Shown here piece by piece: positions 49,201 to 52,200 of a stretch of 64,000 nt of DNA. Each line of letters begins with the position of its first letter. The first letter of the stretch is position 1. The position numbers are program-made. The DNA is from Escherichia coli (GTDB lineage Bacteria; Pseudomonadota; Gammaproteobacteria; Enterobacterales; Enterobacteriaceae). The DNA is taken from assembly GCF_003790525.1 (NCBI RefSeq), contig NZ_CP033635.1; one strand, given 5' to 3'.

Positions 49201-52200
49201 CCTTCATGCTGATCAACCTATTTGATTCATCAGGAACATTAATTGGTGTAACTGATAAAGCTGGCTTAATAGATAGTAACGGTAAATTCCCCAATATGAA
49301 TAAGGCGCTATATGTTGATAGCGTCAGTTCGGTGGCGGGCGCGTTTATCGGCACCTCGTCTGTTACCGCCTATATTGAAAGTACTTCTGGTGTGGCAGTC
49401 GGTGGTCGCACGGGGCTGACTGCGGTTGTGGTCGGCGTTATGTTCCTGTTGGTTATGTTCTTCTCACCGCTGGTGGCGATGGTTCCTCCTTACGCAACCG
49501 CCGGAGCGTTAATCTTTGTTGGCGTGCTGATGACTTCGAGCCTGGCGCGCGTTAACTGGGATGATTTTACCGAATCGGTGCCTGCGTTTATTACCACGGT
49601 GATGATGCCCTTTACTTTCTCGATCACCGAAGGGATTGCACTCGGCTTTATGTCGTACTGCATCATGAAAGTATGCACCGGGCGCTGGCGCGATCTGAAC
49701 CTGTGTGTGGTGGTGGTCGCAGCTCTGTTTGCACTGAAGATTATTCTGGTGGATTAGTAACTGGTGAGGGTTTCCAGATATCATGAGTTCTGATTACGCA
49801 GGAGAACTCATGATCTGGATAATGCTCGCCACGCTGGCGGTAGTGTTTGTGATTGGTTTTCGGGTGCTGACATCCGGGGCCAGAAAAGCGATTCGCCGTC
49901 TCAGCGATCGGCTGAATATCGATGTCGTACCCGTGGAGTCGATGGTCGATCAAATGGGAAAGTCAGCCGGTGACGAATTTTTACGTTATTTGCATCGCCC
50001 GGATGAGTCGCACCTGCAAAACGCCGCGCAGGTGTTGCTCATCTGGCAAATTGTCATTGTCGATGGTAGCGAACAGAACCTGCTGCAATGGCATCGGATT
50101 TTACAAAAAGCCCGTCTTGCCGCGCCGATTACCGATGCTCAGGTCAGGCTGGCGCTGGGTTTTCTGCGCGAAACCGAACCTGAAATGCAGGATATTAATG
50201 CTTTTCAGATGCGCTATAACGCGTTCTTTCAGCCTGCCGAAGGCGTTCACTGGCTGCATTAAAATCGTTTCGTCTTATCAGCCTACAGACCGCGCCTGAC
50301 CTGTCGGGTGGATAAGGCGTTCATGCCGCATCCGGTATCGGAACTGACAGTAGGTGAACGCATTATCTACGTTCTATTTACAGCAGCACCTCCAGCCCGT
50401 GTTTTTGCACAATGCTGAGCAGTTTTAATGAAATGCCATTGGGGCGTTTAGCGCCACTTTCCCATTTTTGTACAGTTGAAACGCTGGTATTGAGATAGTG
50501 AGCGAAGACGGGCTGACTCACTTTTAATTTTTCCCGCAGTGCTTTTATCTCAACAGGTTGTAAGTCTTGCACGCTGGTCAGGCAGGCTTTGTCAAAAGTA
50601 CGCATTGTTTCGGCAGAAATAGCATCGACGCTGGACAATCCAGCCGCTGCGCTGTGAATAGCCTCAAATGCAGGACTTTTAAATTTAGTTTTTGCAGTCA
50701 TAGCAGATCTCTGTCAGTTCTTTAGTGTTAATCATTGCTGTTAGTTGGGCTTTCGTCAGGAAGGCATAATGCTTTGCAAGTTCACGAAACCCAGCCAGTT
50801 CCTGACTATTGATGTTCGACATATCCTGTTTTGCATATAAAAACGTGTAAAACCAATTGCTTCCCCCTTTTGCCAGAATAATTGCACGCTCACGATTTTG
50901 GTGAAGGCGCTTTTTAAAAACGCCACCACCAAGTACATCAGCTTTACCTTGTTCCGTTTCTAAAATGGCCCGGCACAACTCTTCATCTGTCATTGCATGA
51001 GACCTGGCTTCCCTTGCAAACCATTTGGTTTTAAACACGCGTATATCGTTGAGATCCTGTTATTAAAGTATATCACCAAGTGCAATACTTTATCCCTTGT
51101 TCCCAACACAATCGCGAAAATACATATCACCTTGCCCTATGATTTTTATTTCTTCGAGCAGCCTCGAACTTTTCCCACAACACCGTAAAAGTTGCAAAAA
51201 CGTTAAATGCGTCACACATTTCAATGTTAAAGTGGTCGGCTTTTCCCCTGAAACATGCCACGGGTAACACCATGAGTGAATTTATTGCCGAAAACCGCGG
51301 CGCGGATGTCATCACCCGACCGAACTGGTCAGCCGTATTCTCGGTGGCGTTTTGCGTCGCCTGTCTGATTATCGTTGAGTTTTTGCCCGTCAGTTTGTTG
51401 ACGCCAATGGCCCAGGATTTAGGCATTTCGGAAGGGGTTGCCGGGCAATCGGTGACCGTGACCGCCTTTGTGGCAATGTTTGCCAGTTTGTTTATTACCC
51501 AGACCATTCAGGCCACTGACCGCCGCTATGTTGTTATTTTGTTTGCCGTTTTGCTGACGCTCTCCTGCTTGCTGGTTTCCTTTGCTAACTCATTCAGTTT
51601 GCTTTTAATCGGTCGTGCCTGTCTGGGGCTGGCGCTGGGTGGGTTCTGGGCGATGTCGGCGTCGCTGACCATGCGTCTGGTACCGCCGCGTACGGTGCCG
51701 AAGGCGCTGTCGGTGATCTTCGGCGCGGTTTCTATTGCGCTGGTGATTGCCGCACCGTTGGGCAGTTTTTTAGGCGAGCTTATCGGTTGGCGCAATGTCT
51801 TTAATGCGGCGGCGGTGATGGGCGTGCTGTGTATTTTCTGGATTATCAAATCATTGCCTTCGCTGCCAGGCGAACCCTCGCATCAGAAACAAAATACTTT
51901 CCGCTTATTACAACGTCCGGGTGTGATGGCAGGGATGATCGCCATATTCATGTCTTTCGCCGGGCAGTTTGCTTTCTTCACGTATATTCGCCCGGTGTAT
52001 ATGAACCTGGCGGGATTCGGCGTGGATGGCTTAACGCTGGTGCTGTTGAGTTTTGGTATCGCCAGCTTTATTGGTACGTCGCTTTCGTCGTTCATTCTTA
52101 AACGTTCGGTAAAACTGGCCTTAGCAGGCGCGCCGTTAATACTGGCTGTGAGTGCGTTGGTGCTGACGTTGTGGGGAAGCGATAAAATCGTTGCTACCGG

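Follow-up and report, generated by a model that had tools for sequence, protein, structure and literature searches.

Described relatives of the locus

HigBA-2 of V. cholerae (VCA0468/0469; PDB 5JA8, 5JA9, 5JAA, and 8A0X) is a toxin-antitoxin (TA) system in which the toxin gene comes first and the toxin belongs to Pfam family PF06296, and both things are true as well of a gene pair found between yicN and nepI in Escherichia coli SMS-3-5. HigB-2 has been placed in PF06296 in the same study that describes relE-yiaG modules, and there the RelE-type fold is called the BECR fold (PMC11980606). HigB2 and HigA2 are, indeed, the best solved structural matches to the SMS-3-5 toxin and antitoxin. Three of the four residues making up the HigB2 active site, i.e., R51, R64, Y82, and K84 (R51, Y82, and K84 as from PMC5416850), can be aligned with the toxin, and the helix-turn-helix (HTH) portions of the antitoxins are 40% identical. 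In the V. cholerae antitoxin the segment that neutralises the toxin is N-terminal and the HTH domain C-terminal, an arrangement that the SMS-3-5 antitoxin would share given its predicted N-terminal helices. The two systems nevertheless differ. As modelled, the SMS-3-5 toxin has a shorter beta2-beta3 loop than HigB2 and adds two C-terminal helices plus a Cys-containing tail. V. cholerae higBA-2, in addition, is found in a superintegron (PMC11980606), whereas the nepI-linked pair occupies a fixed position in the core chromosome.

The relE-yiaG modules (Gerdes, mBio 2025, PMC11980606) consist of a PF_RelE toxin encoded upstream of a YiaG/HigA2-like antitoxin, as in SMS-3-5. Their antitoxins, too, carry a pair of helices at the N-terminus ahead of the HTH domain, with examples of such modules found in E. 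coli, and an orphan homologue, yiaG, is present in K-12 (PMC11980606). A subfamily highlighted there has extended, disordered toxin N-termini, however, while the SMS-3-5 toxin lacks any such extension, its domain beginning at residue 1.

The term 'HigB' requires some care. The sequence-only reading of this locus described the toxin as HigB-like, and that is appropriate in the sense of HigB-2, that is, of PF06296, but not in the sense of Rts1 HigB, which is assigned instead to PF05015 (PMC11980606). A Pfam search with the toxin at E<=10 reports PF06296 alone, thus neither PF05015, the family expected for a HigBA of the Rts1/Proteus type, nor PF05016, the family of the antitoxin-first K-12 RelBE type (PMC11980606), relative to which the gene order here is also reversed. 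SehAB of Salmonella is likewise a toxin-first, chromosomal, enterobacterial TA system with an XRE-type antitoxin. SehA, though a HigB-like toxin, inhibits RNase III and is reported not to be itself an RNase (PMC12817084), so a RelE/HigB fold is no guarantee of mechanism. The pair is probably not the E. coli orthologue of SehAB. SehA is reported to share 40% identity with HigB of K-12, the residues critical to it (Y53, D61, H88, Y91, K93, T95, Y97, and Y98) are unmatched by number in the SMS-3-5 toxin, and the order of its secondary-structure elements, as described, is unlike as well.

The ccdO157 system offers a parallel of another kind. As cited in PMC7167474 and PMC3184786 from work of 2009, it is an intergenic TA system between core genes which, depending on the strain, is present, defective, or absent, and a REP element is found in its region. 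Its toxin, however, is of an unrelated family, the system being homologous to ccd of the F plasmid, and ccdO157 has been treated as an insertion (PMC7167474). With the nepI-linked pair, by contrast, synteny across genera points to ancestral presence with later loss. The locus is probably best viewed as an ancestral type II TA operon of the HigBA-2 family which has been lost from most E. coli and whose toxin is decaying in those that carry it.

The operon and its products

Two overlapping minus-strand ORFs, of 117 and 107 aa with the toxin first, had been read as resembling a type II TA module, the toxin being of the RelE/DUF1044 kind and the antitoxin an XRE-HTH protein, and that description is confirmed both in its coordinates (Table 1) and by HMM profile searches, which match PF06296 (formerly DUF1044) in the one product and the XRE-type HTH_3 in the other. 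The overlap, on reading of the nucleotides, is 17 nt (toxin TAA at 50685-50687, antitoxin ATG at 50699-50701), which suggests translational coupling. The same bicistronic, single-strand, toxin-first layout is seen in all of 80 related loci. Judged by sequence, that is, the two ORFs are a genuine HigBA2-family operon, an ordinary one and already annotated, with both CDSs present in RefSeq annotation NC_010498.1. A literature search combining yicN, nepI, and toxin found no experimental report on the locus.

Table 1. Features of the locus, with positions counted within the window, i.e., the whole stretch of E. coli DNA analysed (64,000 nucleotides)
Feature	Coordinates	Strand	Remarks
REP	50300..50342		yicN/antitoxin convergent intergenic region; outside genes
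Strain-variable segment, 840 bp	50338..51177		pairwise alignment of SMS-3-5 with K-12
Degenerate inverted half-REP	50355..50370		just downstream of antitoxin stop, inside variable segment
Antitoxin gene, 107 aa, ATG start	50378..50701	-	HigA2/YiaG-like; RefSeq WP_000125643.1
Toxin ORF, 117 aa, GTG start	50685..51038	-	PF06296 (HigB-2 family) RelE-fold protein; start as annotated
Toxin codons 27-32 (ETEQGK), 19 nt	50942..50960	-	counterpart of remnant in K-12-type junction
Family-conserved ATG start site	51042..51044	-	ATA in SMS-3-5; protein and DNA alignments
Shine-Dalgarno-like AGGA	51055..51058	-	upstream of toxin
Putative operator palindrome TAAAGTATTGCAC-ttg-GTGATATACTTTA	51064..51092		inverted-repeat search

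The toxin matches PF06296 'RelE' over residues 1-111 (model positions 3-120 of 120; E=1.6e-38, 132 bits), as do all 120 of the 120 toxin homologues among the matches listed, and V. cholerae HigB2 itself scores in the same family, at 3.3e-8 and 34 bits. There is no characterised member apparent within the enterobacterial PF06296 core. Neither NCBIfam nor PADLOC includes a model that covers it, and PHROGs gives a weak match to a family of unknown function and nothing else. An AF2 model (pLDDT 86, pTM 0.79) has as its top four PDB fold matches chains of V. cholerae HigB2 (5ja9/8a0x; probability 0.99-1.0, TM 0.47-0.59). PDB sequence searches, using either the toxin alone or a 27-sequence profile, returned nothing relevant, so that HigB2 is recovered by fold search only; the relationship is indeed remote, with identity of about 21% and an hhalign probability of 4.6%. 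Even so, toxin R44, Y68, and K70 fall opposite HigB2 R51, Y82, and K84 whether hhalign or MAFFT is used, and over the 27 sequences K70 is invariant, position 44 is R in 26, and position 68 is either Y or F in every one. The equivalent of HigB2 R64 is ambiguous. In sequence alignments that residue falls opposite toxin N61, and it is only the strand order of the AF2 model that points to the invariant R51. By homology with V. cholerae HigBA2, the toxin would be a ribosome-dependent mRNA endonuclease with R44, R51, Y68, and K70 as its candidate RelE-like active site.

The antitoxin is more readily placed. It matches HTH_3 (1.2e-7) along with the C-terminal part of MqsA_antitoxin (1e-5) in Pfam, it finds V. 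cholerae HigA-2 among PDB sequences with phmmer (E=8e-10), and it matches weakly NCBIfam PRK10072, presumably the YiaG model. In its AF2 model (pLDDT 80) the N-terminal part is predicted to form helices over residues 10-24 and 30-41, then comes the XRE helix-turn-helix domain at residues 49-101, and the top 8 hits of a fold search are all HigA2 (rmsd 1.0-1.5 A over about 63 residues), the 40% identity cited above being that of the C-terminal domain. Again by homology with V. cholerae HigBA2, the N-terminal helical segment would neutralise the toxin, and the C-terminal HTH domain would serve for dimerisation and DNA binding.

A target for such binding may be found just upstream of the toxin. 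Most of some 50 Enterobacterales loci have, 25-33 nt ahead of the toxin gene, a palindrome with the consensus TAGCAC-N3-GTGCTA, and in SMS-3-5 its promoter-proximal arm holds a putative extended -10, TGaTATACT (51067-51075, minus strand). That -10 assignment is an inference, as a scan of 50200-51300 for consensus promoters and terminators found none. By homology with the V. cholerae operon, the antitoxin, or its complex with the toxin, may repress the operon at this conserved palindrome, which would overlap the -10 region. Conserved as well in homologous loci is an ACAGGAT motif upstream of the toxin, which includes the Shine-Dalgarno-like AGGA.

Strain variability and ancestry

As the sequence-only reading supposed, the pair is absent from K-12 and varies among strains. 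It is carried by 1716 of 5426 complete E. coli genomes (32%) rather than universally, and in K-12 the flanks alone match. Comparison of the yicN-nepI junction across strains gives the same picture, with an 840-bp segment of SMS-3-5 replaced in K-12-type genomes by a 41-bp filler, which is identical in the junctions of K-12, E2348/69, and a Nissle derivative. On the left, the 840-bp segment has its end at the GGTA (50334-50337) of the REP element. That there is a REP beside the pair, as had been noticed, is correct: a 25-mer REP consensus has one match in the window (50310-50334, with 1 mismatch and 0 expected). The 43-mer comprising the element is a dispersed repeat, with a median of 9 places in an E. 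coli genome, a maximum of 20, and 52,422 places in total. The REP cannot be counted as part of what varies, however, since it is present also in K-12, E2348/69, and the Nissle derivative; it belongs instead to the common backbone, outside of the variable segment.

Together with the degenerate half-REP the element forms a 16-nt inverted repeat, 88% complementary. Rfam naRNA4, presumably REP-derived, matches at 50306-50371 at 29 bits, below its gathering score of 59.5, and the fold of the RNA of this region is no more stable than that of shuffled sequence (z=-1.4). Sub-threshold matches to Rfam mir-5350 and ceN126 are spurious.

Within the filler is a 19-nt stretch, collinear with and in the same orientation as toxin codons 27-32, to which it is identical at 17 of 19 positions, with both mismatches at synonymous third positions. 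Its local-alignment score is 14.0, versus a shuffle mean of 8.5 (sd 1.0), and shuffle maxima over three runs of 300 were 13.0-15.5; the remnant is short, and 1 of 900 shuffles outscored it. For the right end of the filler, 20 nt (GATCTTAACTCCAGCTCAAG), no convincing homology was found.

The yicN-TA-nepI arrangement recurs, in the same orientation and with a spacing of 218-249 bp, among Escherichia, Citrobacter, Klebsiella, and another of the Enterobacteriaceae, 10 representative genomes in all. Among its holders beyond E. coli are six Klebsiella species and two other Escherichia, and the adjacency of nepI and the TA pair is found also in Salmonella. These nepI-linked copies are deeply diverged. 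Between genera the toxins are 63-77% identical and the antitoxins 74-85%. A neighbour-joining (NJ) tree of concatenated toxin and antitoxin does not recover the syntenic copies as one clade, and the case for ancestry thus rests on synteny and divergence.

A different account of these observations, in line with the accessory insertion favoured by the sequence-only reading, is that lineages like SMS-3-5 gained the module at the yicN-nepI junction recently, via horizontal transfer, with K-12 retaining an empty ancestral site. Presence in less than a third of complete E. coli genomes is what such an insertion would look like, TA modules are in general mobile (PMC7167474), and the top matches include no representative genome of either E. 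albertii or E. fergusonii. This TA family, too, is capable of moving, since elsewhere in the Enterobacterales an operon-only block of about 742 bp is shared between families at 86-95% identity, with one locus having unrelated flanks. Recent insertion is, however, difficult to square with the same nepI-side position, orientation, and spacing in so many other enterobacteria. The closest non-Escherichia toxin, moreover, shares no more than about 72% identity, which leaves no recent donor in view, and no close plasmid or phage copies were found, true plasmid copies being at most 56% identical. Nor is the K-12-type junction empty, containing as it does a piece of the toxin that differs solely at synonymous positions. 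No direct repeats coincide at the segment ends (50338 and 51177), and neither an integrase nor a tRNA gene is among the annotated neighbours, i.e., adeD, adeQ, yicN, nepI, and an adhesin. Recent insertion thus is very improbable, and the idea of an accessory insertion lacks support. Because the nepI-linked arrangement is the same across genera, and because K-12 keeps a toxin remnant, the module is viewed instead as ancestral and as deleted in K-12. Rather than having been recently acquired, it would have stood beside nepI already in the common ancestor of Escherichia, Salmonella, Citrobacter, and Klebsiella. From K-12, along with approximately two thirds of complete E. coli genomes, it would have been removed by a deletion that ends, on the left, at the adjacent REP.

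Start-codon polymorphism and probable decay of the toxin

The annotated toxin begins two codons too late relative to its family. Homologues are 119 aa in length and begin MRVFKTKWF or, in other genera, MR[VI]FKTKWF. As the third codon often is Ile, which is unable to initiate, it is the ATG that is the family start codon, not the GTG. Among E. coli, 1082 genomes have this ATG versus 629, a third of carriers, with ATA in its place, including SMS-3-5 and all listed O157:H7/O55:H7 genomes. PGAP starts the toxin at the GTG in every allele, even where the ATG stands two codons before it, and the 117-aa RefSeq protein probably masks a start-codon polymorphism by which carriers are split.

Further damage is seen on the ATA background. 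A stop at W6 (W6*) is found in 138 of the 629 ATA genomes, and the two W6* alleles examined have in addition a 1-nt deletion, hence a frameshift; both are annotated pseudogenes, with the antitoxin intact. SMS-3-5 has in common with these pseudogene alleles a haplotype of ATA plus M16, while both Escherichia outgroups possess ATG and I16. Substitutions at conserved positions occur on ATA alleles, namely I16M in SMS-3-5 and both G59V and L87I in O55:H7. The toxin annotation, for comparison, is missing from none of 40 ATG-allele genomes sampled. In E. coli carriers the toxin thus appears to be undergoing stepwise inactivation, with loss of the ATG followed by nonsense mutation and frameshift, the antitoxin staying intact. 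With its ATA-start allele plus I16M, the SMS-3-5 toxin is, on sequence grounds, most likely poorly translated or untranslated, and activity of the module in this strain is doubtful given the ATA start on a haplotype that clear pseudogenes also have.

Decay is not the only way of reading the ATA allele. The SMS-3-5 module may instead be fully functional as annotated, translated from the GTG and indifferent to the ATA/ATG change. Consistent with this, PGAP calls that GTG everywhere, the 117-aa ORF is intact and retains all candidate catalytic residues, and the ATA allele is both common and, in 491 of its 629 genomes, without the W6 stop, which is unexpected for a long-dead gene. On such grounds the toxin may still be weakly expressed from the GTG or the ATA. 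Full function from the GTG is nonetheless a doubtful if still serious possibility, as the family's start is the ATG, as the sole Shine-Dalgarno-like AGGA is 10 nt from the ATG site versus 16 nt from the GTG, and as the nonsense, frameshift, and conserved-position changes accumulate on the ATA haplotype, with the annotation kept in every ATG genome sampled. Another suggestion is that the locus is kept for its antitoxin, which would either regulate on its own or serve as an 'anti-addiction' antidote to related plasmid toxins, the toxin being vestigial. The antitoxin is the better conserved of the two across genera, and WP_000125643.1 is identical in strains with ATG-start, ATA-start, and nonsense/frameshift toxins; related modules exist on plasmids, chromosomal ccd is an anti-addiction precedent (PMC7167474), and K-12 yiaG is an orphan. 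But the antitoxin is dispensable, as both genes are deleted from roughly two thirds of E. coli genomes. Its identity among strains says little about selection because the toxin-dead alleles are very recent, and cross-neutralisation is uncertain given how distant the true plasmid homologues are. Retention for the antitoxin consequently is unlikely. Quite improbable, too, is an old, vertically inherited TA system whose antitoxin has a host role, as regulator or antidote, and in which the change from ATG to ATA is a selected attenuator of toxin dosage rather than decay. An ancestral operon with a decaying toxin is the reading retained here.

The practical value of the locus is modest, though its intact ATG allele could reasonably stand for the enterobacterial core of PF06296. 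The direction of the polymorphism, as read here, is that of loss rather than of gain, contrary to the default view of chromosomal TA modules as recent arrivals. What E. coli would provide, that is, is a natural allelic series for the decay of a chromosomal TA system, from ATG to ATA, to ATA with W6* (the frameshift being seen in the two such alleles examined), and then to full deletion, a series comparable to that of ccdO157.

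A HigBA-2-type pair and its surroundings

The 961-bp yicN–nepI intergenic stretch is 100% identical to that of E. coli SMS-3-5 (NC_010498.1), and the ORF listing agrees exactly with the two minus-strand ORFs of the sequence-only reading, i.e., a putative toxin and antitoxin, which overlap by 17 nt. RefSeq labels these, respectively, 'type II toxin-antitoxin system RelE/ParE family toxin' and 'helix-turn-helix domain-containing protein'.

Features at and near the yicN–nepI junction (window positions)
Feature	Position	Strand	Remarks
yicN	49810-50262		flank of pair (RefSeq)
REP element	50300-50342		beside antitoxin
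GGTA of REP	50334-50337		left K-12 junction, by reading
Variable segment	50338-51177		840 bp
Degenerate inverted half-REP	50355-50370		inside variable segment
Antitoxin ORF	50378-50701	-	107 aa, ATG start
Toxin ORF	50685-51038	-	117 aa, GTG start
Toxin-internal hairpin	50898-50932		17-nt arms, 1-nt loop
AGTA in toxin gene	50932-50935		left K-12 junction, by reading
Toxin codons 27-32	50942-50960		match to K-12 filler
Homologues' ATG position	51042-51044	-	ATA in SMS-3-5
Palindrome	51064-51092		13-nt arms; 20-48 nt upstream of ancestral start codon
Putative extended -10	51067-51075	-	TGaTATACT
nepI	51272-52456		flank of pair (RefSeq)
EaeX/Air ORF	52659-61460	+	2933 aa

The toxin matches Pfam PF06296 (previously DUF1044; E=1.6e-38) along its full length and the antitoxin matches HTH_3 (1.2e-7) along with the C-terminal portion of MqsA_antitoxin (1e-5), so that the RelE/DUF1044 and XRE-HTH assignments proposed earlier both hold upon profile searching. 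NCBIfam adds sub-cutoff antitoxin matches to MqsA, NadS, and PRK10072 models. Against PDB sequences the antitoxin finds V. cholerae HigA-2 (E=8e-10), while the toxin finds no match there, even using a 27-sequence profile. With AlphaFold models (pLDDT 86 for the toxin, 80 for the antitoxin), however, fold searches place the V. cholerae HigBA-2 toxin, VcHigB2, on top for the former (5ja9, 8a0x; probability 1.0, TM 0.5-0.6) and its antitoxin, VcHigA2, on top for the latter (5jaa, 5j9i, 8a0x; C-terminal domain rmsd 1.0-1.5 A, 40% identity). Both partners therefore point to one characterised system, HigBA-2. VcHigB2 itself scores in PF06296 (3.3e-8), in agreement with the assignment of HigB-2 to that family in a study which also describes relE-yiaG modules (PMC11980606). 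The earlier 'HigB-like' label thus stands in the HigB-2 sense but not in that of Rts1-type HigBA, which is rejected as the Rts1 toxin belongs to PF05015 (PMC11980606). Also rejected are identity with K-12 RelBE and, on the evidence at hand, with Salmonella SehAB.

The active-site residues of VcHigB2 are R51, R64, Y82, and K84 (PMC5416850). Three of these, R51/Y82/K84, align with toxin R44/Y68/K70 in both hhalign and MAFFT, positions which across the 27-sequence family alignment are R in 26/27, Y or F in 27/27, and K in 27/27, respectively. VcHigB2 R64 falls opposite toxin N61 in sequence alignments, with one whole HigB2 strand left unaligned; given the strands of the toxin model (40-44, 52-58, and 61-68), strand order would instead make the invariant toxin R51 its equivalent.

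Elsewhere around the pair, nepI start-site calls are inconsistent, i.e., 1185 nt as annotated in SMS-3-5 and some strains versus 1191 nt in K-12, O55:H7, and others, and the region upstream of nepI differs by the toxin-antitoxin indel. The large ORF after nepI in SMS-3-5, the inverse autotransporter adhesin EaeX/Air (RefSeq), is a second strain-variable feature, its position being occupied in K-12 and O55:H7 by yicS (in K-12 followed by nlpA). In O55:H7 CB9615 (locus L003, 1-989), the annotation gives adeQ, an adenine permease gene nearby, as a pseudogene with a frameshift.

Origin of the strain polymorphism

The pair is carried by 1716/5426 complete E. coli genomes, chromosomally in every case, and is missing from K-12, in line with the sequence-only reading. 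K-12, E2348/69, and a Nissle derivative possess an identical 210-bp junction, with a 41-bp filler instead of the variable segment. That variability had been taken to indicate, probably, an accessory insertion. Consistent with such a reading would be a close donor, yet none was found in plasmid and phage collections. A representative-genome scan found yicN–pair–nepI, in the same orientation and 218-249 bp from nepI, in 10 genomes: Escherichia sp. E1V33, 'E. coli E69', Citrobacter amalonaticus, Klebsiella indica, K. grimontii, K. michiganensis, K. oxytoca, K. spallanzanii, K. pneumoniae, and one further Enterobacteriaceae. In Salmonella enterica the pair is divergent from nepI, 216 bp apart (NepI protein 88.5% identical). 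Identity between genera of syntenic copies is 63-77% for the toxin and 74-85% for the antitoxin, a deep divergence which is what long residence would produce.

The K-12 filler, in addition, contains CTTTGCCCTGTTCCGTTTC, a 17/19 match in the same orientation to toxin codons 27-32, with both differences at synonymous third positions (alignment score 14.0; shuffles averaging 8.5, sd 1.0, with 1/900 higher). By reading, the left K-12 junction would join GGTA of the REP to AGTA within the toxin gene, which suggests a deletion mediated by microhomology. Given synteny across genera, divergence, and this remnant, the insertion reading therefore is unsupported: The polymorphism is a loss of an ancestral pair.

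The only close 'plasmid' or 'phage' matches are evidently chromosomal records, i.e., PLSDB H123 and H124 (4.9 Mb and 5.4 Mb) and INPHARED H138 (a 515-kb Salmonella WGS contig). The homologous operon of Erwinia, Pectobacterium, Serratia, Edwardsiella, Mixta, and others forms a ~742-bp block with sharp edges (loci L012-L021 and L027-L036; ~3922-4664 in locus coordinates) and 86-95% DNA identity across different families; right flanks differ, and the left one, with a hairpin (gctgtcgttgacagc), is common to most loci, Edwardsiella having a different one. Bounds, identity, and differing flanks together suggest that this cassette moves. Two ~1-kb contigs (L010 and L050) of an actinobacterial MAG, 'Collinsella sp. 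Map_57_008', carry, respectively or conversely, an E. coli-type yicN/toxin-antitoxin segment (antitoxin 100% identical) and a copy closest to that of Klebsiella pneumoniae, with a near-identical upstream region; these almost certainly are bin contamination.

Start codon and upstream region

Toxin homologues are 119 aa, starting MR[VI]FKTKWF, and their ATG is ATA in SMS-3-5, with the annotated GTG being simply codon 3; a start codon loss is probably hidden behind the annotated start. ATA is also found in O55:H7 CB9615 and in all O157:H7 genomes among the matches listed, with ATG in XJ5.2, R3, EcPF7, and both Escherichia outgroups. Allele-specific 45-mers count 1082 ATG and 629 ATA genomes, together 1711/1716 carriers. 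An AGGA Shine-Dalgarno motif lies 10 nt from the ATG position versus 16 nt from the GTG. In E. coli, ATA initiates translation at no more than ~1% of the efficiency of ATG. A W6 stop occurs on the ATA background in 138 genomes; in the two such alleles examined, 1 nt is missing as well near codon 104, and both are annotated as frameshifted pseudogenes, with antitoxin intact. These pseudogenes share with SMS-3-5 an ATA + I16M haplotype, whereby a residue kept by ≥90% of the toxin family, I16, is replaced. Among sampled genomes, toxin annotation is absent from 0/40 with ATG versus 10/40 with ATA. In SMS-3-5, then, toxin output is probably reduced or nil, a judgment kept modest since the majority of ATA alleles show no further damage and the PGAP GTG start may be the true one. 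Erwinia mallotivora (L029, and the second copy in L032) has two operon copies ~13 kb apart, one with ATA at the conserved position, an independent loss in another genus.

Upstream, the consensus palindrome TAGCAC-N3-GTGCTA sits at the same distance in most of ~50 Enterobacterales homologous loci examined, followed in most by TATAgT and then a conserved ACAGGAT Shine-Dalgarno region. The TGaTATACT motif in the promoter-proximal arm is put forward as a putative extended -10; a consensus promoter scan called no promoter. At the other end, the REP adjoining the antitoxin is genuine, as first noticed, and is present also in K-12; a sub-threshold Rfam naRNA4 match spans both it and the half-REP. Where the toxin gene encodes the conserved GGGVFKKRL motif, a near-perfect hairpin gives rise to a spurious Rfam mir-5350 match.

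Standing among known systems

The evolutionary pattern closely parallels that of ccdO157 at folA-apaH, which likewise is present, defective, or absent by strain and has a REP nearby (PMC7167474, PMC3184786). A literature search found no paper on a yicN–nepI toxin-antitoxin locus. Caution is called for with homology-based 'RNase' labels on HigB-like toxins, as the 2013 PLoS Pathogens SehAB paper (PMC3868539) is flagged as retracted and a 2026 NAR paper reassigns the SehA target to RNase III. Overall, what the sequence-only reading observed is confirmed, and its interpretation holds in part. Family and mechanism are known from VcHigBA2 and the module type is already described (PMC11980606); the pair is a new, uncharacterised HigBA-2-type locus, its biology ordinary, with two useful corrections being ancestral loss rather than insertion and the lost start codon behind a GTG annotation.
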